64,000 bases of DNA, taken from NCBI GenBank assembly GCA_041917695.1, contig JAYRXE010000037.1:434582-498581 (forward strand). The letters are read 5' to 3'. A program made the translations under genes and the position numbers. Shown here piece after piece: positions 17,350 to 61,600 of this stretch. The notes under the pieces were generated by a model. The model was given only the letters and a program-made list of their open reading frames with translations, was not told the DNA's origin and did no database searches. This DNA comes from Minisyncoccota bacterium (lineage in GTDB: Bacteria > Patescibacteriota > Minisyncoccia > UBA6257 > GWB1-50-10). The stretch's first letter is position 1, and the number at the start of each line of letters is the position of its first letter.

Positions 17350-17458
17350 TTGTATGCCGGCGTAGCCTACTTTCCCGGAGCCGAAGCCCTAGTATCATCG
17401 GATACGTACGCTTTCACTTCTCTGTTCGGAATGGGAAGAGGTGGTGCACGTACCTATA
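17350..17458 (-). rRNA. rrf: 5S ribosomal RNA
   Basis: The minus strand reads ...CACCACCTCTTCCCATTCCGAACAGAGAAGTGAAAGCGTACG...GATGATACTAGGG...GGGAAAGTAGGCTACGCCGGCAT, which is 5S consensus. Ends are approximate. Confidence 0.85.
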
Positions 17459-17557
17459 AAACACCGGCAAACAAGAATATTCATGTCGTCCATTTTGAAA
17501 TCAGCTTTTTGAGATAGAAATACTACCGCATATTTTGCATATGCGATTAAAAAAGAA

Positions 17558-20650
<3,093 letters not shown>

Positions 20651-20931: not shown

Positions 20932-23900
20932 CTAGGAGCCCGCCAAAAGGTCTTCCTCAAAGGCCCGGATGCCGTTCATATCCTTGGCGTATCGGGAAAT
21001 ATCCGGGAAATCGAGCGCCATGATTCTTCTATAGACCGCGGCGATAAGCCGTTCCATCCGCTCGGTTTCCGCCGGTTCTATCACGACGGGCAGGCGGCGG
21101 CTATCCTCAGCGGCCTCCACGAATTCGAGACAGCCCTCCCGCACCGGCCCTTTTCCCATAAACTCGCGCGAATGTTCGATGAGGAGCTTGTAAAAGACGA
21201 TTTGCCCGCGGTATTTCCATGCCTTCACCTTCTCATACGGATCGGCGGGATCCCACCGGCGCAACGGCTTCCCGGTTTTCCAATCCCGCACCGCAATGCC
21301 TGCCGGCGAGAACGCTATGTGGTCTACCTTTCCCGAAATCGGAATGCCATTCACGATCACTCCTTGCCGCTTGAAATTGAACTCCACGAAATCCCCGGGA
21401 GAAAAACTTTCCCGCACGCTTTCGTAAAACGGCGGGAGCATGCGTTCTCCGCGAAGCCGCATATGCTCGAAATCCCTTTCGCTGAGGCGCTCCCGCCGCA
21501 GGAATTCGGTGAAGAGCCTGACCACCGCATCGGCATCGGGAGCGGCGCCATTTTTTTTCATGCTATCGTGGGCGCGCTGAAGCGCCTGATGCACCGCCGA
21601 GCCGTACGATCCGCTCGCCGTCTTCGGCTCCGGAAAACGCAGCAAATTCTTTTCAAAGAAAGCGAGCGGGCCTCCGTCGCGCACATCAAGAAAATTATGG
21701 AGATGAGTAACGTTCAGCTGATACTCTTCAAGAAATGGGGCGAGAAGCGCCTGCTCGTCGGGCATAAATGGCCCTGCGCGGCGAGCCTCCCATTCGCGGT
21801 TGAGTATCTTCTCCGCCTCGCCGGCAAAATCCTGAAGCGGCAGGAATTCCGGCTTGAAATGATCCACGCCTTCGCGAGGCGTGAGAAAGCTAAGGCGAAG
21901 GGATTCCCTTCCCCGCGAATCCGCCCGATACGACGTAAGATAGAGATGTTTCCTCGCGCGAGTCATTGCGACATAGAAAAGCCTGATTTCGTCATCCATC
22001 GAATCCTCCGAAGGCGCAATCGGCAGATTTGAAGGCATCGGGAATCGCCTTCCTGCCCGCGAATTCGCCCAAACGTCTTCCTGGCAGTTGAGGACGAATA
22101 CCGTATCGAACTCGAGTCCTTTGGACTTGTGGGCGGTCAGAAACTGCACGGCGGCGGGCGCATTCATGAACGGACTTGCGTTGTGAATGGGTATCTGGTT
22201 TTTCTCGTAGAGCTCGATGAATTCAACGGCGTCTCGGACCTTCAAAGGCCTCCCTCGCCGATATTCGCGAAGCGCATCTATGAACGACTGCAGTGAGGAA
22301 AGGAATTGGATGTAGTCCGCTCGCTTCCCGTGAAAGCGCTCACGGCTGAAATAATACGACCGGAAGGGGCTGAACATGTCGCTTCGGACAAACGTGTCGC
22401 CATCGCCGTCCTCGTCAGAAAATATCCTCTGCGGGCCTCCGACGAGTTCGTGCAGTATCTCCTCTGCGGTCTCATATTGCGCCCGCCCGCCCAATTCGAT
22501 GAAAAAATCTGCGATTGCCGAAGCCTTCCCGCCTGCGCGCTCCATCGCCAAAAGCCACGACGAACTTGATGCCGAGAGCGATATTTCCCATACCGCCTTC
22601 CGATCAAGCCCCCAAAACGGATAGTGAAGGATTTCCGCAAGGTACGCGTCTTCTTCTCCTTTTCGCGAAGCGAGCGAATCAACAAAACGCATCATCGTAA
22701 CCAGTTGGCGCACGTGAGGCTCATGGAGCACGTTCCGCTGGCGCTCATACGAAACAGGAACCTCTGCTGCATGGAAATGCGGCACCAGCGCCTCAAGATC
22801 CCGATGCCGGCGGCCGATCACGGCAATCTTACCCGCCGGAGTTCCGCCTTCAATCAGGCGCTTCGCCTCTGCGGCGAGCCAATGATATTGCGTTTCCTCA
22901 GAAGGGAATTCTCGCGCGCGAATCTCGTCGAGTGCACCTTCCCCTGCAGCCGAACTCAATTCCTTCCGGAGTTCCGGCAACAGCCTTTGCAATTGGAGGG
23001 ATCCTCGCTGGATTACCGAACGGGCGGCGTCCAGAAGCCGCTGAGAAGAGCGGTAGCTTTGGGAGAGCACGATGAGCTTCGGGTCGCGATAACGCTCTGC
23101 GAAACTTACGATGTTCGAAATCTCAGCTCCTTGGAATTTATAGATCGCCTGGTCGTCGTCTCCCACCACCATGATATTCGGCCTGCCTTCATTCACGGGA
23201 TTTTCGGTGAGGAGCGCAAGGAGGCGCATTTGGGCTTCGTTCGTATCCTGAAATTCGTCGACAAGGACATAGTGATAGCGCTCCTGGAGATCGAGGCGCG
23301 CACCAGGGTTTTTCACGAGTGTTGAGATCGTATCGAGAATCATGTCGTCATAGTCGTAGTACTCCTCTTTGCGCATGTTTTCCGCATAGGCGCCGTACAC
23401 GCGCGAAAGCGACTCCATCTTCGGGAGATGCACGAGCTCGCGCACTCTCGTTTGCCCCGCATCGTCTTTCGCGGTATGCCGCCGCTTCCACTCCGTAAGC
23501 GGCTTCATCGTCTCTGACGCTTCCGCATCCAAAAGCGCCTCGGTAAGCGAACGTGCGAGCGCCTCGGGAAGAGGAAGGAAAGGCTCCGGCAAGGAAGCCG
23601 CCTGAAGCGCACGCAAGGCTTCGACCGCTTCGTGGGCCTTTCCGTACGAAGATTTCGATATCCGAGACGCAAACGCTTCGGATACGATTGCGTCTATCTC
23701 CGGCAAGAGCCGCCGGCTTTCCTCGACGATGCCGCGGAGATCACCCGGCGATATGCCGGCCTTTTTCATATGGCCTATCGCCTCGCGCACTTTATTCAAA
23801 TACGTAAACTGGCCGTTCAGCTCGGCGCGAAGCGGATCGCCATGTTCCAACCCGCTCATAATCGCCTCCAGGACCGTTATTTGAGTGAGTTCGTCGGCGG

Positions 23901-24246
23901 GAGAAAGAAAGGCGCCATTGTAAAAATGCTCGGGGTACCGCCCGATGATTTCCACGCCAAAACTATGGAACGTGTGGATGGAAACTCGATACGCGTCACG
24001 GCCGATGAGTTCCGCAAGCCGCCGGCGCATATTGAAAGCGGCGGCGTCGGTAAAGGTAAGGCACAGTATGTTGCCCGGAGAAACGTCCGCGCTCGCAAGG
24101 ATATTCCCCACCCTCAGCGCCAAAAGCTCGGTTTTCCCCGACCCCGGGCCCGCAATCACCATGACCGGCCCTTCAAGCGCATCCACCGCCTGTTTCTGGG
24201 CGGCATTCAGCTGCTCATATCGTTCCGCAAAACGCTTTGGATCCAT
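20932..24246 (-). CDS. UvrD/PcrA/Rep-family ATP-dependent DNA helicase with a C-terminal PD-(D/E)XK (RecB/Cas4-like) nuclease domain
   Basis: Helicase motifs: Walker A AGPGSGKTE, motif II VLVDEFQDTN, SQSYRS, and TAHKSKGLEFD...YVAMTRARKHLYL. The C-terminus carries GKVDHIAF...DWKTGKP...YRGQIVFYKLL, i.e. D, D/ExK and QxxxY motifs. Confidence 0.85.
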   Translation of the reverse strand: MDPKRFAERYEQLNAAQKQAVDALEGPVMVIAGPGSGKTELLALRVGNILASADVSPGNILCLTFTDAAAFNMRRRLAELIGRDAYRVSIHTFHSFGVEIIGRYPEHFYNGAFLSPADELTQITVLEAIMSGLEHGDPLRAELNGQFTYLNKVREAIGHMKKAGISPGDLRGIVEESRRLLPEIDAIVSEAFASRISKSSYGKAHEAVEALRALQAASLPEPFLPLPEALARSLTEALLDAEASETMKPLTEWKRRHTAKDDAGQTRVRELVHLPKMESLSRVYGAYAENMRKEEYYDYDDMILDTISTLVKNPGARLDLQERYHYVLVDEFQDTNEAQMRLLALLTENPVNEGRPNIMVVGDDDQAIYKFQGAEISNIVSFAERYRDPKLIVLSQSYRSSQRLLDAARSVIQRGSLQLQRLLPELRKELSSAAGEGALDEIRAREFPSEETQYHWLAAEAKRLIEGGTPAGKIAVIGRRHRDLEALVPHFHAAEVPVSYERQRNVLHEPHVRQLVTMMRFVDSLASRKGEEDAYLAEILHYPFWGLDRKAVWEISLSASSSSWLLAMERAGGKASAIADFFIELGGRAQYETAEEILHELVGGPQRIFSDEDGDGDTFVRSDMFSPFRSYYFSRERFHGKRADYIQFLSSLQSFIDALREYRRGRPLKVRDAVEFIELYEKNQIPIHNASPFMNAPAAVQFLTAHKSKGLEFDTVFVLNCQEDVWANSRAGRRFPMPSNLPIAPSEDSMDDEIRLFYVAMTRARKHLYLTSYRADSRGRESLRLSFLTPREGVDHFKPEFLPLQDFAGEAEKILNREWEARRAGPFMPDEQALLAPFLEEYQLNVTHLHNFLDVRDGGPLAFFEKNLLRFPEPKTASGSYGSAVHQALQRAHDSMKKNGAAPDADAVVRLFTEFLRRERLSERDFEHMRLRGERMLPPFYESVRESFSPGDFVEFNFKRQGVIVNGIPISGKVDHIAFSPAGIAVRDWKTGKPLRRWDPADPYEKVKAWKYRGQIVFYKLLIEHSREFMGKGPVREGCLEFVEAAEDSRRLPVVIEPAETERMERLIAAVYRRIMALDFPDISRYAKDMNGIRAFEEDLLAGS

Positions 24247-34509: not shown

Positions 34510-34674
34510 CATAAACATGAACCCACGAAAGATCGTGGGTTCATGCTTCCTACGGGAATCGAACGCGTATGGGGTCGGGAGCGGCGCAACGCTCCCGTGG
34601 AGGAGACGCTTAAGAACCGAGAGGTTCTTAAGGAGCGAAGCGACTTGAGATTTTCCCATATCCCGCACATAAAA
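34510..34674 (+). repeat. tRNA-associated structured repeat element, copy 1 (downstream of tRNA-Gly)
   Basis: Hairpin atgaacccacg-aaagat-cgtgggttcat. Core gggaatcgaacgcgtatggggtcgggagcggcgcaacgctcccgtggaggagacgcttaagaaccgagaggttcttaagg. It ends in a degenerate copy of the tRNA-Gly 3' end (gattttcccatatcccgcacataaaa versus the tRNA's gattcccgtatcccgcacataaa). Homologous copies sit at 43381-43596 and 60046-60214. Confidence 0.7.
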
Positions 34675-57587: not shown

Positions 57588-58004
57588 TTATTTGGTGAAA
57601 AAATTTTTCAATGCGGTAGCGATCGCTTCGCAGGCTCCGGGTTTCACAATACGGTCGAATGAAATGACCATAACGATCGCTTCATAGCGGGTAGTGAGAA
57701 ACACGCATCCTTCTTCGTTCGCTTTCCGCTCGTGGAACTCCGAATAACTCGGAATGTCCATTGTGGAAAAAACATGCGGAGATACGTCCGAGCAGATAAT
57801 CACCACCTTTCTCGTGATATGAGGCGGGTTCGGTTCTTTCGCAAAATCATGAAAAGAAACCGTACTGTTTTGGAATGGCTCCGGCAAATTTCCGCCCGCA
57901 CAGAATTCTGCGAACTTTTCATTGAAAAGCTCGTGGTAGGCGGTGGCGACGCTTCCCTTCCCCGACTCTTCCACAAGGAGGATGGGGATGCTGTTTTCTG
58001 CCAT
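57588..58004 (-). CDS. Hypothetical protein
   Basis: 138 aa, with its own terminator and no recognisable family. Confidence 0.4.
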   Translation of the reverse strand: MAENSIPILLVEESGKGSVATAYHELFNEKFAEFCAGGNLPEPFQNSTVSFHDFAKEPNPPHITRKVVIICSDVSPHVFSTMDIPSYSEFHERKANEEGCVFLTTRYEAIVMVISFDRIVKPGACEAIATALKNFFTK

Positions 58005-58108
58005 ATAAAACGCTCCTTTCTGTTTGCGCTACGTGTTAAGCTGGCTGAACTCATGGAACTCCTTTCGGTTTTTGCTGTCAAATAAAAAGCCGCCAGCGGC
58101 GGCTTTGG

Positions 58109-58558
58109 TCATGGAGCGGATACGTGCCCCACGCAATACTCCCGATGCATGGCATCCACGCCCTTCAGAAAAAGAGCATACTCTTCCTCGTCCATGCTCG
58201 TATTCGGACACACCACGAACGGAACGACCCGCTCCAGGTGAAGGATGAGGAAGTTGCCCGTGGACGGATGGGGCGCTACCGACCAGTCATTCGTCTCCTG
58301 CCGTTTGAGATATTCAAGATATTCGCGGTTTCCCACCAATATCCGCGCCTTGCTTCTGAAAAAAAACTCGAATTGCTCCGCAAGGGGCTTGTCTTCGTTC
58401 GAATGGATGATGATATCCGGCCGAGGACGGAACCCGTTCCGCAAACGGGGAACAAAAAAATATTCAATGAACTCCTGGCTTTTTCGTATGTCATTCCGGC
58501 TGTCGGAGCCGTTCACCGGAAAATAAAAAAAGGCAAAGATGTTTATTTCGTTTTCCAT
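58109..58558 (-). CDS. Hypothetical protein
   Basis: 149 aa, with its own terminator (aaagccgccagcggcggcttt at about 58083-58105) and no recognisable family. Confidence 0.4.
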   Translation of the reverse strand: MENEINIFAFFYFPVNGSDSRNDIRKSQEFIEYFFVPRLRNGFRPRPDIIIHSNEDKPLAEQFEFFFRSKARILVGNREYLEYLKRQETNDWSVAPHPSTGNFLILHLERVVPFVVCPNTSMDEEEYALFLKGVDAMHREYCVGHVSAP

Positions 58559-58633
58559 GGCGCCTCCGCGCTTAAATTTTTAAAAAAAATGTTTCTGGAA
58601 AAATTTAACCCCCGATAAACGGGGGTGTCAACT

Positions 58634-58984
58634 TTAGGCAGCTGCGAAAAGCTCTGGCTGTGAAACCTTTTCAAAAAAGGCCATGCATTCATGGAAGTTA
58701 TGCTCTTCCTCAGCCTCGGTGACAGGGATTTCCTTATAATCCTTATCCTCTTTGGCATAGGTATTGAGCACTATCCAAGCTCTCTGCCTGCACTGCTTTT
58801 CAATACTTCGGGGAGGTTCTACATATACATGCGAACCGTAATTTTTGTATCCGATGCGTGTCATTTTCTTCCCATCTTCGCTGACAAGAAAAGTGAACTC
58901 CATAGCCTCGTACGTGACTACGACGGTGCGATGGTTATCGCTTACGGACTCAACATGAATCGGATCAGGAATTTTTGGTTCCAT
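58634..58984 (-). CDS. Hypothetical protein
   Basis: 116 aa, with its own terminator (acccccgataaacgggggt at about 58606-58630) and no recognisable family. Confidence 0.4.
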   Translation of the reverse strand: MEPKIPDPIHVESVSDNHRTVVVTYEAMEFTFLVSEDGKKMTRIGYKNYGSHVYVEPPRSIEKQCRQRAWIVLNTYAKEDKDYKEIPVTEAEEEHNFHECMAFFEKVSQPELFAAA

Positions 58985-59146
58985 GATTATCTCCTTTTGA
59001 TTAATTAATATTTACTGTTTTTATTATACCATACGAAGCATATAAAAGTCAATAATTCCAAAGTTTTGTCAAGGTGTCCTACCCAGCTCTGACGCAACGG
59101 AAGAGTATAATGGGTGCAAAGGTCGAGAAAAGCTATTTTTAAAAAA

Positions 59147-59476
59147 ATGAAGAAACTTTTCGTGGTTTTGAGCGTAATGGCAATGATGTTCAGCCTCTCT
59201 TCGGTCGCCCTCGCAGGCGGCGGAAGCTCGCAGGTCTCCTACACGTACTACGATACGCAGGCGGACTATGCGAACGGCGTTGGCACGGCAGTCACCTGCA
59301 ACCCGACGAGCCCCTCCGGCGACTACATCACCTGCTTCATTGACGATGAGGATCGCGCCTGGGGCATTGTGGTCGATACCGACCGCGCCTGGGGCATTGT
59401 CGTCGACGATCGCGCCTGGGGCATTGTCGTTGATACCGATGGCAAATCCTTCGGCATTGTCGTTGATACCGACTAA
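59147..59476 (+). CDS. Secreted small protein with four tandem DRAWGIVVDTD-like repeats
   Basis: Signal peptide MKKLFVVLSVMAMMFSLSSVALA. A Cys-containing segment (TCNPTSPSGDYITCF) precedes DRAWGIVVDTD, RAWGIVVDD, RAWGIVVDTD and GKSFGIVVDTD. A strong terminator follows (aaaaaactccttcgggagtttttt at about 59489-59520). Confidence 0.55.
   Translation: MKKLFVVLSVMAMMFSLSSVALAGGGSSQVSYTYYDTQADYANGVGTAVTCNPTSPSGDYITCFIDDEDRAWGIVVDTDRAWGIVVDDRAWGIVVDTDGKSFGIVVDTD
59351..59473 (+). repeat. Tandem in-frame DNA repeats (about 27-33 bp, four units) within the secreted peptide gene
   Basis: cgcgcctggggcattgt(g/c)gt(c/t)ga... occurs three times, followed by a diverged fourth unit ggcaaatccttcggcattgtcgttgataccgac. 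Confidence 0.7.
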
Positions 59477-59639
59477 TTCCGTTTTTTCGGAAAACAAAAA
59501 ACTCCTTCGGGAGTTTTTTGTTTTGAGCGCCATCGTGGAGCCCACCGGCCGGCAGATAGGGATGTTAGAATCGGATTGTGGCTTGGGGGTAATAAAAAAG
59601 AGGGGTCTTAATCCCTCTTTCTGACTCAATGCTTAAAAC

Positions 59640-60008
59640 CTAATGATTCATAACGTACCAACTTTTGTACGCACGTAAATTTTTCTTTGAGAGTTCTTTT
59701 TCGGGGTAAGGACCTACTATTTTTGATGGCATAAGATTCATTTGGGATCTCTGTTGATCTCTAAATAATAGCTCAGGATCTGAATCGGACTGAGCTAATA
59801 CAATTACATTATTTATATTTGTAGCCCCTAAGCACTTATGCTTTTTTGCTTGATTGATTAATGCAGTGATATATTCTCGTATATCTTGTGATATCGTAGA
59901 TTTAAACAACTCCTCAAAAAATTTAAATTTAATTTTTTTCATTTCACTTTTTAAAATTATTAAAAAAATATCTGCAAGCAAAATACTACAAATCATAGCT
60001 TCTGTCAA
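59640..60008 (-). CDS. Hypothetical protein (AT-rich)
   Basis: A 122-aa ORF whose sequence is markedly AT-rich. It lies between the secreted repeat peptide and the tRNA-Glu-associated repeat. Confidence 0.4.
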   Translation of the reverse strand: MTEAMICSILLADIFLIILKSEMKKIKFKFFEELFKSTISQDIREYITALINQAKKHKCLGATNINNVIVLAQSDSDPELLFRDQQRSQMNLMPSKIVGPYPEKELSKKNLRAYKSWYVMNH

Positions 60009-60045
60009 TATTTTGAGAAACGGGACTAGTCGAAAACATTTTCGA

Positions 60046-60214
60046 ATTTAGCCCACGGGAAATCTCACGTCGTCACTCCGCTCCTCCTTAAGAACCCACG
60101 GTTCTTAAAAGATTTCCTCCACGGGAGCGTTGCGCCGCTCCCGACCCCATACGCTTCGATTCCCTGAGCACCCACACTAAAACAACTCCTTGAAAGGAGT
60201 TGTTTTAGTGTAAG
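60046..60214 (-). repeat. tRNA-associated structured repeat element, copy 3 (downstream of tRNA-Glu)
   Basis: The reverse complement of 60086-60164 is gggaatcgaagcgtatggggtcgggagcggcgcaacgctcccgtggaggaaatcttttaagaaccgtgggttcttaagg. This is nearly identical to copy 1 and includes a perfect 38-nt run. The element ends in a degenerate copy of the tRNA-Glu 3' end (agcccacgggaaatctcacgtcg). Adjacent to the tRNA is a 15-bp-stem hairpin aaaacaactcc-ttgaaa-ggagttgtttt. Confidence 0.7.
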
Positions 60215-60286
60215 TAGCCCCACGGGGAATCGAACCCCGATTTTTGCCGTGAGAGGGCAATGTCCTAGCCGTTAGACGATGAGGCC
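60215..60286 (-). tRNA. tRNA-Glu (anticodon CUC)
   Basis: The minus strand reads GGCCTCA-TC-GTCT-AACGGCTA-GGAC-A-TTGCC-CTCTCAC-GGCAA-AAAT-CGGGG-TTCGATT-CCCCG-TGGGGCT-A. The acceptor stem has two G-U pairs. The overall sequence is close to canonical tRNA-Glu. Confidence 0.8.
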
Positions 60287-60298
60287 AACGGAATTCAT

Positions 60299-61600
60299 TT
60301 AATCGTAAAGCCCCGGCTTGCGCAACCACTCAGGCTCCTGGCGAATCAGCAATTTCTCCGCCTGCGTTACGTCCGGAAGCAACGCTTTCACCACGCGCTC
60401 AAGACGCACGCCTTGCGAGCCCTTCACGAGTATCACGTCCCCGCGCTGGACCTTCTGCGCCAATTGCATGGCAAGCTCGTGCACGTTCGAGAATGAAAAT
60501 ATCTTTTTTCTCGGCATGCCTGCCGCAACGGCTCCCTCGCCGATAATCTTCCCGCGAATGCCGATGGTGAAAAGCAGGTCGGCGCTGTCGCGCGCCATGC
60601 GTCCCACGCTTTCGTGCGCTTCGAGCGTGCGGGGCCCGAGTTCCAGCATGTCTCCGAGGACAGCAATCTTTCGCTTCGCCGGCACCGATTTCAAGACCGC
60701 GAGCGCCTCTTCCATCGAGAGCGGAGCGGCGTTATAGGTGTCGTCAATCACGAGCGACTGTTTCACGCCCTTCAAGACGCGCTTCCTGCCTTTGGGCGGG
60801 AGGAACTCCGAGAAAATCTGGCTCGCGTTCAAAAGATTCACATTGAAAAGCAGGCCGATCGAAACCGCCGAGGCAATCGAGTAGGCGGCTGATTTGCCGA
60901 GCGAGCCCACCACGCGGAACGGGACCACGCTCCCGCCGTAGGAGAGTTTGAAACTCACGCCCATCGCGTGCTCTTCCACAAAATACCTGAAATTCAAAAT
61001 GCGCACATGCGCCTCCGGCGAAAAGCCGAAAGTAACCGTATGCGCGCGTGTAAGGGACTTTGCCGAACGCACCCGTTCATCGTCGGCATTCAGAATGGCA
61101 AACCCCGTCGCCGGGAGCGCGGCGATGAGCTTCGCCTTTTCCTTAAACATGGCGTCCGTTCCCGTGAAAAACTCGATGTGCACCGGCGTCTCCCCCATCG
61201 CCGTAAATACGCCGATATGGGGTTTCGCAATCTCAAGGAGGCGCTTCATGTCGCCCGGCCGGTCGATGCCGTACTCAAGGACCACCACCTCCGGGTATTC
61301 CTTGTTCCGCGTGACGATTTGCCGGAAGGCGGTCCACATGACGCGCACCCAGTAGCCGAGACCCGAGGGCGTCCCGAAATCGCCGATGATGGAAAGCGGG
61401 ACGCCCAGTTCGTTGTTGAAATTCTTCGAAGGCGCCCTGACGATGCGCTCGTTCTTCAGGATGCGCGCAATCGCCTCCTTTGCGGAGGTTTTGCCGACAT
61501 TTCCCGTTATGGCGATAATCGCCGGTTCATAGCGCGCGACAATGAGCCGGGCAAGATATTTCAGGACCGACTCGAGAACGCGCACGAGTATTTTTTTCAT
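60299..61600 (-). CDS. murF: UDP-N-acetylmuramoyl-tripeptide--D-alanyl-D-alanine ligase (Mur ligase family)
   Basis: The ATP-binding motif reads ITGNVGKTSAKE, and a Mur ligase central and C-terminal domain are present. Its position directly after ftsI matches the dcw cluster order. Confidence 0.8.
   Translation of the reverse strand: MKKILVRVLESVLKYLARLIVARYEPAIIAITGNVGKTSAKEAIARILKNERIVRAPSKNFNNELGVPLSIIGDFGTPSGLGYWVRVMWTAFRQIVTRNKEYPEVVVLEYGIDRPGDMKRLLEIAKPHIGVFTAMGETPVHIEFFTGTDAMFKEKAKLIAALPATGFAILNADDERVRSAKSLTRAHTVTFGFSPEAHVRILNFRYFVEEHAMGVSFKLSYGGSVVPFRVVGSLGKSAAYSIASAVSIGLLFNVNLLNASQIFSEFLPPKGRKRVLKGVKQSLVIDDTYNAAPLSMEEALAVLKSVPAKRKIAVLGDMLELGPRTLEAHESVGRMARDSADLLFTIGIRGKIIGEGAVAAGMPRKKIFSFSNVHELAMQLAQKVQRGDVILVKGSQGVRLERVVKALLPDVTQAEKLLIRQEPEWLRKPGLYD

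Follow-up and report, generated by a model that had tools for sequence, protein, structure and literature searches.

In the window, which is the whole stretch of 64,000 nucleotides analyzed here, a small gene on the forward strand (59147-59476) encodes a secreted protein, P0001, with four tandem units related to the peptide DRAWGIVVDTD. The question raised by this locus is whether these units are peptides to be released from a common precursor or structural elements of a folded protein. Secreted orphan repeat proteins are common in genomes of the candidate phyla radiation (CPR) type, and the surface proteins of these bacteria, which are presumed to mediate a host-dependent lifestyle, are almost entirely uncharacterized. 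A peptide natural product from a tiny-genome bacterium was suggested at first, but the evidence points to a structural repeat protein, which removes that claim. We found that P0001 belongs, with its single module, to a family of secreted all-beta repeat proteins that is very small and lacks annotation. It is probably an exported and folded beta-repeat protein, stapled by a disulfide and either envelope-associated or involved in binding, rather than a precursor cut into peptides.

The repeat gene and its signals

The features of the gene and of its product are as follows, by position in the window:

59036-59146, + strand: conserved 5' region of the gene cassette, 98-100% identical in the strain contigs L002 and L003
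59147-59476, + strand: coding sequence of the secreted repeat protein P0001, from ATG to TAA, 109 aa
59147-59215, + strand: signal peptide of the Sec/signal peptidase I type, residues 1-23, MKKLFVVLSVMAMMFSLSSVALA followed by GGG, with predicted cleavage between ALA and GGG
59237-59350, + strand: Cys module, residues 31-68, with a SYTYY strand, a short helix or loop, and the hairpin TAVTC51...GDYITC63FI
59351-59383, + strand: repeat R1, DRAWGIVVDTD, at a putative ancestral motif position aligned with the first D[KR]A[WF]GI[VA]VD of every relative's module
59384-59410, + strand: repeat R2, RAWGIVVDD, a putative derived copy lying on the linker strand of relatives (TGQYVQYG / PTPRIEQG / TGPYITDD)
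59411-59440, + strand: repeat R3, RAWGIVVDTD, at the second putative ancestral motif position (the second motif of the Falkowbacteria-type and P0005 modules)
59441-59473, + strand: repeat R4, GKSFGIVVDTD, a diverged C-terminal copy beyond the module end
59478-59524, + strand: intrinsic terminator, with a small hairpin (59478-59491), a 14-bp hairpin (59492-59523) and a T-run

The original prediction of a secreted protein with four tandem units holds for 59147-59476; its end coordinate, 59520, takes in the terminator as well as the coding sequence. Read directly from the sequence, the signal peptide of P0001 presents a basic n-region, a hydrophobic core and an A-x-A site, and the protein is predicted to be cleaved after Ala23 and exported. 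The signal is not of the lipoprotein type because no Cys follows the cleavage site. Ahead of the repeats, P0001 reads MKKLFVVLSVMAMMFSLSSVALA/GGGSSQV-SYTYYDTQADYANGVGTAVTC51NPTSPSGDYITC63FIDDE (slash at the cleavage site), and C51 and C63 are the only two Cys of the protein. The mature form comprises 86 aa (~9.2 kDa) and is very acidic, with a pI of about 4 and 15 Asp/Glu against 4 Lys/Arg.

A TATAAT box is read in the sequence upstream of the gene (59106-59111) and may constitute the -10 box of a predicted promoter, while no strong Shine-Dalgarno sequence is present in 59036-59146. The gene had been credited with a strong terminator of its own, which we confirmed: the folding energy of the hairpins and T-run is -21.9 kcal/mol (z = -3.5), none of 200 shuffled sequences folded equally well, and the element includes a perfect 15-nt inverted repeat (59491-59505/59510-59524). 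This terminator is probably bidirectional. The identical P0001 protein is encoded on 4 contigs from 3 samples; within the coding sequence, 2 substitutions, both synonymous, separate the strain contigs L002 and L003 from the window. The gene presents a GC-content of 0.58 (0.75 at third codon positions), relative to a window mean of 0.53 and to 0.34 in the downstream segment 59525-60048. On the opposite strand, the open reading frame (ORF) at 59069-59629 (186 aa) was rejected as a shadow ORF; homologues exist for the + frame only.

Repeat units and selection on the motif

The cores of three units read RAWGIVVD and that of the fourth KSFGIVVD, for a unit length of 9-11 residues. Tandem Repeats Finder described the array with a period of 27, 3.0-3.4 copies and 76-84% matches (score 109-130). 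The 24-nt cores of R1-R3 are identical at 22/24 positions in every pairwise comparison, and all of their differences (4 substitutions) are synonymous changes at third positions. R4 is 16-18/24 identical to these three cores and differs from them at 3/8 residues. The four units had been described as near-identical, which is accurate for R1-R3 but not for the diverged R4. The codons of R4 (AAATCCTTCGGCATTGTCGTTGAT) are, oddly, 21/24 identical to those of the lone KSFGIVVD copy in the positional ortholog found on contig L006 (described below).

The motif is also repeated in two relatives of P0001. In L007, from Ca. Falkowbacteria bacterium UBA2355, the 8 copies of AWGIVVD are invariant as peptide with a mean pairwise nucleotide identity of 0.81 (minimum 0.67), and their codons vary between GGC, GGT and GGA, between ATT and ATA, between GTT, GTC and GTA, and between GAT and GAC. 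Likewise, the 8 copies of AFGIAVD in L008 are invariant as peptide and encoded by a variety of synonymous codons. The substitutions counted in the window gene and its strain variants are all synonymous (6/6: 4 among R1-R3 and 2 between strains), which has a chance on the order of 1e-4 when assuming ~24% synonymous sites in the motif codons (our own count). An invariant peptide spelled by many synonymous codons indicates that the motif is under purifying selection and is not only the product of recent duplication, and three of the window copies are young as well. The uniformity of the repeats had been ascribed either to recent expansion or to selection, and the second of these is borne out by the codons, with the first also applying to three of the window copies.

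We considered whether the array could be a repeat generated by replication slippage without function, in a spurious or decaying ORF. The protein falls in no annotated family and a word-index search with P0001 returned only P0001, as might be expected of such an ORF. Yet homologues with the same architecture exist in several lineages, the changes among R1-R3 and between strains are only synonymous, and conservation extends to the signal peptide, the 5' region and the terminator. In addition, the GC-content of the gene matches that of the host genome, unlike the neighboring island at 0.34. Non-function is extremely improbable on these grounds: because of its homologues, its synonymous-only changes and its conserved signals, this is a real gene, not a decaying one, and it encodes a small, exported and very acidic protein.

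A small family built on a two-Cys module

Relatives of P0001 were searched with an exhaustive phmmer scan of 1.84 billion representative proteins and with scans of genome and metagenome contigs for the pattern D[KR][AS][FW]GI[VA]VD, which gave 173 and 224 pattern matches. The phmmer scan returned four true relatives: P0002 (1e-30), P0003 (3e-29), P0005 (1e-11) and P0006 (1e-5). The full-length form of P0002 (300 aa) was found in Ca. Falkowbacteria bacterium UBA2355 (L007; also L010/L011), between parB and dnaE, and a four-module form of P0003 (289 aa) was found in L008 and L012, where the order is likewise parB, family gene, dnaE. The P0003-type gene is followed by a tandem paralog of 104 aa, in which the Cys module is present and the motif is not. 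In total, the family comprises about six distinct proteins from libraries derived from roughly 15 billion predicted proteins, and it has so far been encountered only in genomes of the CPR/Patescibacteria type (Ca. Falkowbacteria UBA2355 and unbinned relatives). These relatives, together with the genes found in the window, point to a CPR affiliation for the window as well. Word-index protein searches with P0001 and two family profiles returned only P0001, P0006 and a truncated paralog, and missed relatives detected by the exhaustive scan.

The members of this family contain 1-4 copies of a ~65-aa module, which we defined from the alignments A1, A2, A4 and A7 (the placement of the repeats being taken from A4). 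Each module presents two invariant Cys and 1-3 copies of the motif D[KR]A[WF]GI[VA]VD. It starts with SYxYY, 6-10 residues, T-x-V-x-C, x2-3, D-x-x-G-[DN]-[YF]-x-x-C and x-[IVM]-x-G, and it ends with [ED]-D-[KR]-A-[WF]-G-I-[VA]-V-D, a linker strand, and D-[KR]-A-[WF]-G-I-[VA]-V-D-E-x-D. Most relatives have this non-motif strand between their motif copies, and it reads TPTGQYVQYG, GLPTPRIEQG or AVPSRHIQLG. The two Cys, C51 and C63 in P0001, are invariant in all of the 12-13 module copies aligned and would probably be joined extracellularly as a disulfide staple. A signal peptide of the signal peptidase I type is found at the start of all full-length members (the signals of the relatives end in FTSMALA/GG, PFTSAQ/GA, PFASA/MS and KVFA/AG, slash at the cleavage site), and the mature proteins all have a pI of about 4.05. 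By our reading of the sequences, the three single-module members (P0001, P0006 and the 104-aa paralog) contain seven beta-strand-like segments each and may share this strand count. Most simply, copies of the motif unit arising in tandem would have replaced one non-motif strand and contributed a further strand at the end.

These relatives also bear on the looser likeness to repeat-containing surface proteins that had been noted for P0001, and which our results support, as they are multi-module secreted proteins. The motif sequence is conserved among them while its copy number is not, and P0001 does not cluster with known families of cell-wall-binding proteins. No family member exceeded the threshold of any model in Pfam, NCBIfam or PHROGs. 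A search of all six-frame ORFs of the window with the family profile (hmmsearch) revealed no second member there, and a scan of viral contigs for the family found nothing.

Several other matches were rejected. Weak matches to DUF6520, TmcD, JUQZ and ArgoL2 were attributed to noise or to the signal peptide. The phmmer matches P0007-P0009, P0012 and P0013 consist of low-complexity tandem repeats from eukaryotes, such as DQSWSIMINH. The matches to the giant adhesins P0004, P0010 and P0011 are short, at the level of a hairpin, and summed over dozens of repeats. With phmmer, these adhesins (DUF7507/DUF11-type P0010 and P0011, and the giant wall-anchored P0004) reach E-values of 1e-16 to 4e-4 against P0001 through such summed matches. 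Both groups are modular secreted beta proteins and the resemblances consist of SYTYYDTQADYANG ~ YTYTVTQADVDAG and GDYITCFIDDEDRAWGIVV ~ GDYTATFYVDEEKATKVTV. However, the adhesins lack the Cys pair, and the TQADYANG segment is specific to P0001 and absent from its true relatives. P0010 and P0011 match DUF7507 at 1e-27 and 9e-22, whereas P0001 presents no match to DUF7507 or DUF11 at E<=1, and the likeness is limited to SYTYYDTQADYANG.

A few observations concern individual members. The gene at L004 53-721 encodes 3 modules (222 aa), while the near-identical genes at L008 1370-2239 and L012 1606-2475 encode 4 (289 aa); this difference could be a polymorphism in module number or an assembly collapse of the ~200-nt tandem repeat. 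L008 (CAYRGL010000045.1) is labelled as an 'uncultured Gammaproteobacteria' bin; its order of parB, family gene and dnaE and its closely similar ParB are those of L007, and it is probably mis-binned. The database call for P0002 (L005 248-1150) starts 11 codons late, which cuts the signal peptide, and runs two codons past the stop of table 11 (...FIELQF instead of ...FIEL), so that translating the locus does not reproduce the listed protein; a different gene-calling model or genetic code was apparently used. Finally, the two-module member P0005 (L016 2-472) lies on a contig with a GC-content of 0.45 from the Joint Genome Institute (JGI) sample 3300045377, the same metagenome as the strain contig L002. 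P0005 comes from a different organism than L002, so that the family is present in at least two co-occurring populations of that sample.

The repeats as cores of a peptide precursor

The layout of P0001 had been compared to that of multi-core precursor peptides. Under this explanation, cleavage between the units after export would free identical, acidic 9-11-mers containing Trp, with a signalling or antimicrobial role. Multi-core precursors of ribosomally synthesized and post-translationally modified peptides (RiPPs), either cyanobactin/orbitide-like or fungal and processed by Kex2, also carry identical short tandem units behind an N-terminal targeting sequence. Several features of P0001 are compatible with such a precursor: three of its units share an identical RAWGIVVD and adjoin directly without any spacer, the repeat peptide is under strong purifying selection, and AlphaFold2 (AF2; see below) gives no confident fold for R2-R4.

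The family as a whole argues against it. The motif is an element of the larger, repeated Cys module, and in relatives structured, non-identical linker strands stand between its copies and take the place of P0001 units, unlike in RiPP cores. The spacing between copies is variable, with 0-2 variable residues between adjoining units, and conserved sites for cleavage or recognition are absent from their flanks. P0001 begins with a plain Sec signal peptide, and no leader or recognition sequence was found in it. No RiPP-precursor family was significant in NCBIfam or Pfam.

The genomic contexts speak against a precursor as well. In the window, the order is tpiA, three orphan ORFs, the repeat gene, strain-specific cargo, tRNA-Glu and murF. 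Elsewhere, the family gene lies beside tRNA-Glu/murF (L006), with parA, parB and dnaE (Falkowbacteria type) or with a 2-hydroxyacid dehydrogenase gene (L016). We detected no maturation or RiPP enzyme, dedicated protease or transporter in any of these four unrelated contexts (0/4), which extends to the other contexts the earlier remark that no maturation enzyme is obvious near the gene. The neighboring ORF of the window is itself strain-specific and absent from L002 and L006. With a motif that belongs to a ~65-aa Cys module, a plain Sec signal and contexts restricted to housekeeping genes, the multi-core reading is not supported, and we regard the release of peptides from P0001 as very unlikely.

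Resemblance of the motif to propeller blades

The motif scan also retrieved a 555-aa protein of Chlorobi bacterium OLB5 (L009 9095-10762), which carries a type IX secretion system (T9SS) sorting tail and six SBBP repeats (PF06739, 5e-19). The first strand and turn of its blades have the sequence of the repeats of P0001 (EEDRAWGIVVDTDG / EEDKAWGIVVDETD), with 12-13 consecutive identical residues by BLASTP; two of the blades begin with EEDKAWGIVVDETDNIYISGHT and EEDRAWGIVVDTDGSIFIGGYT. The SBBP pattern for the first strand plus turn, xDxAxGIxVDxxG, is present in the family, and EDRAWGIVVDTD is identical to blade 6 of the OLB5 protein. When the family profile was aligned with seven OLB5 blades (hhalign), we obtained a probability of 89% over 19 columns (geDkafGIvVD---g--I). 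Both proteins are secreted, acidic, all-beta repeat proteins.

The likeness is confined to this unit. SBBP blades are ~53-57 aa long with a mandatory second strand, GNxYxTGxT, and a W...Y closing strand, whereas the repeats of P0001 consist of the 9-11-residue first-strand unit only, and its two-Cys hairpin has no counterpart in SBBP. When an SBBP blade is compared with the Pfam model, most of the match falls on GIVVDTDGSIFIGGYTTAADF (profile positions 17-37), of which P0001 lacks the second half. As controls, the whole OLB5 protein scored 68 bits and one OLB5 blade alone 24.9 bits. The family also shares with NHL propellers (such as the PknD sensor domain, 8pkr) the generic hairpin P/A-W-G-I-A-V-D-x-x-G-x-x-Y-V. 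NHL blades have four strands and about 44 aa, however, and no organization in six blades is demonstrable in the family. Against PDB sequences, the family profile returned only the NHL propeller of PknD (8pkr), three blades of which aligned on G[IL]AVD..G.vYV with a non-significant E-value of 2.6, and the Cys-hairpin profile returned only WD40 blade hairpins (E = 0.2, non-significant). These results suggest that the repeat unit plays the part of strand 1 with its turn in an SBBP/NHL blade, from which it may have originated. All family tests remained below threshold, and P0001 is therefore not a member of the SBBP or NHL families.

Structure prediction and proposed mode of action

Structure prediction with AF2 on the single sequence of P0001 gave a predicted local distance difference test score (pLDDT) of 49. 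With an 11-row alignment of the module, the overall pLDDT rose to 62.6 and only the Cys module was moderately confident. The family alignment yielded a pLDDT of ~80 over the first ~40 residues of the module, from the Cys module to the start of R1, and the Cys module itself (~78-83) was modelled as four strands plus a short helix.

We propose that the pre-protein is exported by the Sec pathway and cleaved after Ala23, and that the mature protein would then fold outside the cell into a small, acidic, all-beta protein with a disulfide staple. The four units would follow one another as strand-turn elements, each combining an aromatic residue and an Ile-Val-Val core with turns rich in Asp that could bind Ca2+ or cationic surfaces. 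R1 and R3 would occupy the two ancestral motif positions, R2 would have overwritten the intervening non-motif strand, and R4 would be a terminal copy; the repeats would have arisen from tandem duplication within the gene, after which purifying selection would have kept them constant. The protein may act as a soluble or loosely attached binding or envelope protein, of which the multi-module relatives would be longer versions, and it may depend on Ca2+ or form oligomers. The arrangement of the repeats as a beta-meander and the extracellular binding role are inferred. Nothing in the P0001 family demands a new mechanism.

Several results weigh against this proposal. In both AF2 runs, R2-R4 had a pLDDT <50 and the placement of strands was inconsistent between runs, so that a folded beta-meander of the repeats is not demonstrated, and a Foldseek search against the PDB found nothing. 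The hhalign match to the OLB5 blades is partly circular since the OLB5 protein was itself retrieved by the motif scan. SBBP (PF06739, gathering threshold 20.5 bits) gave no match at E<=10 for P0001, for the repeat segment or for any relative, and the Cys hairpin did not match SBBP blades with hhalign (probability 0.1%). The best Pfam hint for the repeat segment, NHL (PF01436), reached 12 bits over 11 residues (E = 0.24; threshold 20 bits), and the only NCBIfam hint for the Falkowbacteria protein, the 7-bladed YncE, was far below its cutoff (E = 0.007). P0001, which ends in ...GIVVDTD, contains no anchor motif (LPXTG/sortase, SLH, cell-wall-binding repeat or C-terminal transmembrane segment), and neither do its relatives. 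Its extracellular role would moreover be drawn from analogy.

The blade-like motif raises the possibility that mature P0001, with about seven strands or two blades, oligomerizes into a closed ring similar to a beta-propeller and binds lectin-type or other ligands, as trimerizing two-blade lectins do. Blade strand 1 of an SBBP propeller has the same sequence as the motif, the weak top matches from three independent libraries are all propeller blades (PknD NHL, NHL and YncE), each unit has a conserved Trp or Phe at its start, and the mature multi-module relatives measure 265-275 aa, which is comparable to the size of a six-bladed NHL-type propeller. By our reading of the alignment, however, the module has six strands in the order A-B-A-B'-C-D and cannot be divided into four-stranded blades. 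A 3-module variant exists, GNxYVTG, the second strand of a blade, is absent, none of the propeller family models was significant, and neither AF2 nor Foldseek provided structural support. A propeller-like ring is an unlikely form for P0001.

The strands could also stack between molecules instead of within one. In this case, P0001 would be a subunit of a self-assembling fibre or functional amyloid, whose four Asp-gated WGIVV strands would build an extracellular beta-fibril or matrix. The strands are short, hydrophobic and strongly beta-prone and lie between charged 'gatekeeper' residues, the protein is small and secreted, and the poor AF2 prediction of the monomer would be in line with assembly. 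The repeat rungs of the amyloids CsgA and FapC, in contrast, are about twice the 9-11-residue period. The hexapeptide FGIVVD was picked as predicted amyloidogenic in a Bap protein, but the Bap region that contains it tested negative for aggregation (PMC11792866). We found no match to curli/Fap-type or other amyloid families in Pfam and none to the curli/Fap type in NCBIfam, and no curli- or Fap-type secretion or nucleator genes in the neighborhood of the gene in the window. The multi-module relatives look globular or elongated, with conserved disulfide pairs. We consider an amyloid fibre improbable for this protein.

A more speculative view is that the family represents a new CPR-restricted extracellular beta-repeat fold, in which the blade-strand motif became an independent block of 9-11 residues and P0001, as the minimal member, would fold only by self-assembly into a ring or a sheet; on the surface of an episymbiotic cell, it would serve attachment to the host. 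We hold this to be unlikely; if true, amplification of one beta-strand would have given rise to a whole protein in nature. Under the folded, disulfide-stapled beta-repeat protein that we favor, P0001 already constitutes a case of protein evolution: a strand-plus-turn unit of 9-11 residues, the same as blade strand 1 of SBBP, would have been amplified inside a small Cys module (with a putative disulfide), one copy would have overwritten the neighboring non-homologous strand such that the strand count appears preserved, and the unit would then have been frozen by purifying selection.

Genomic position and strain variation

Downstream of the repeat gene, the closest landmark is a tRNA gene:

60214-60286, - strand: tRNA-Glu(ctc)

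The gene had been placed in an accessory region next to this tRNA. The DNA between the terminator and the tRNA is indeed strain-variable, but the gene itself is conserved in the lineage. Homology between the window and L002 extends from about 59036 to 59519, ends exactly at the terminator and resumes at 60049; the strain contig L003 ends at 59519. In place of window positions 59520-60048 (529 bp, GC-content 0.34, with a 122-aa AT-rich ORF at 59640-60008 on the - strand), L002 carries 2.35 kb of AT-rich DNA (525-2877, GC-content 0.35) with ORFs of 143, 234 and 241 aa, the 234-aa ORF presenting a weak match to SLFN_AlbA_2. The cargo ORFs of the window and of L002 had no match in PHROGs, PADLOC or NCBIfam. 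Since its region is replaced in L002, the AT-rich ORF of the window is strain-specific cargo and not a partner of the repeat gene.

Contig L006 (GC-content 0.40) carries no cargo between the family gene and the tRNA. There, P0006 (95 aa) is encoded 50 nt from tRNA-Glu(ctc), which is followed by murF. Relative to the window, the C-terminus of MurF is 74% identical, the tRNA-Glu 91% and the family proteins 37% (E = 3e-16). This positional ortholog indicates that the repeat gene is an old resident of the locus and that foreign DNA was inserted between the gene and the tRNA. Separating the gene from the strain-variable island by tRNA-Glu prevents a false functional link to the AT-rich ORF.

On the other side, three small orphan ORFs of 138, 149 and 116 aa (57588-58984, - strand) are each followed by their own terminator-like hairpin in a region with a GC-content of 0.48. 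They are conserved in the strain contigs L001 and L003 and had no match in Pfam, PHROGs, PADLOC or NCBIfam. Over its first 38 nt, L002 has no match to the region upstream of ~59036, and this flank of the repeat gene may also be strain-variable.

A conserved element of ~100-115 nt lies at 60050-60165 (+) and 34554-34655 (-) of the window and at 2878-2994 of L002, adjoining two different tRNA genes, tRNA-Glu(ctc) and tRNA-Gly(ccc). Its 36-nt identical core (CCACGGGAGCGTTGCGCCGCTCCCGACCCCATACGC) is found in 2 copies in the window, with 0 expected by chance. On the far side of each copy stands a partial direct repeat of the 3' end of the adjoining tRNA (GTAGCCCCACGGGGAATC in L002; TGCGGGATATGGGAA by tRNA-Gly), and a hairpin separates each copy from the tRNA. 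The element matched neither Rfam nor viral contigs, and Rfam at E<=1 over 59000-60320 returned the tRNA and noise only. It looks like the att-proximal end or scar of an integrative element targeting tRNA genes, or like a miniature mobile element.

Elsewhere in the window, the 23S rRNA (17553-20643, - strand) measures 3091 nt relative to a model of 2925 positions, which suggests that it carries an insertion. The 5S rRNA follows at 17354-17469 (- strand), and the next feature upstream of the 23S rRNA is a 1104-aa ORF (20932-24246) with no preceding 16S rRNA, such that the 16S gene appears to be unlinked from the 23S-5S pair.

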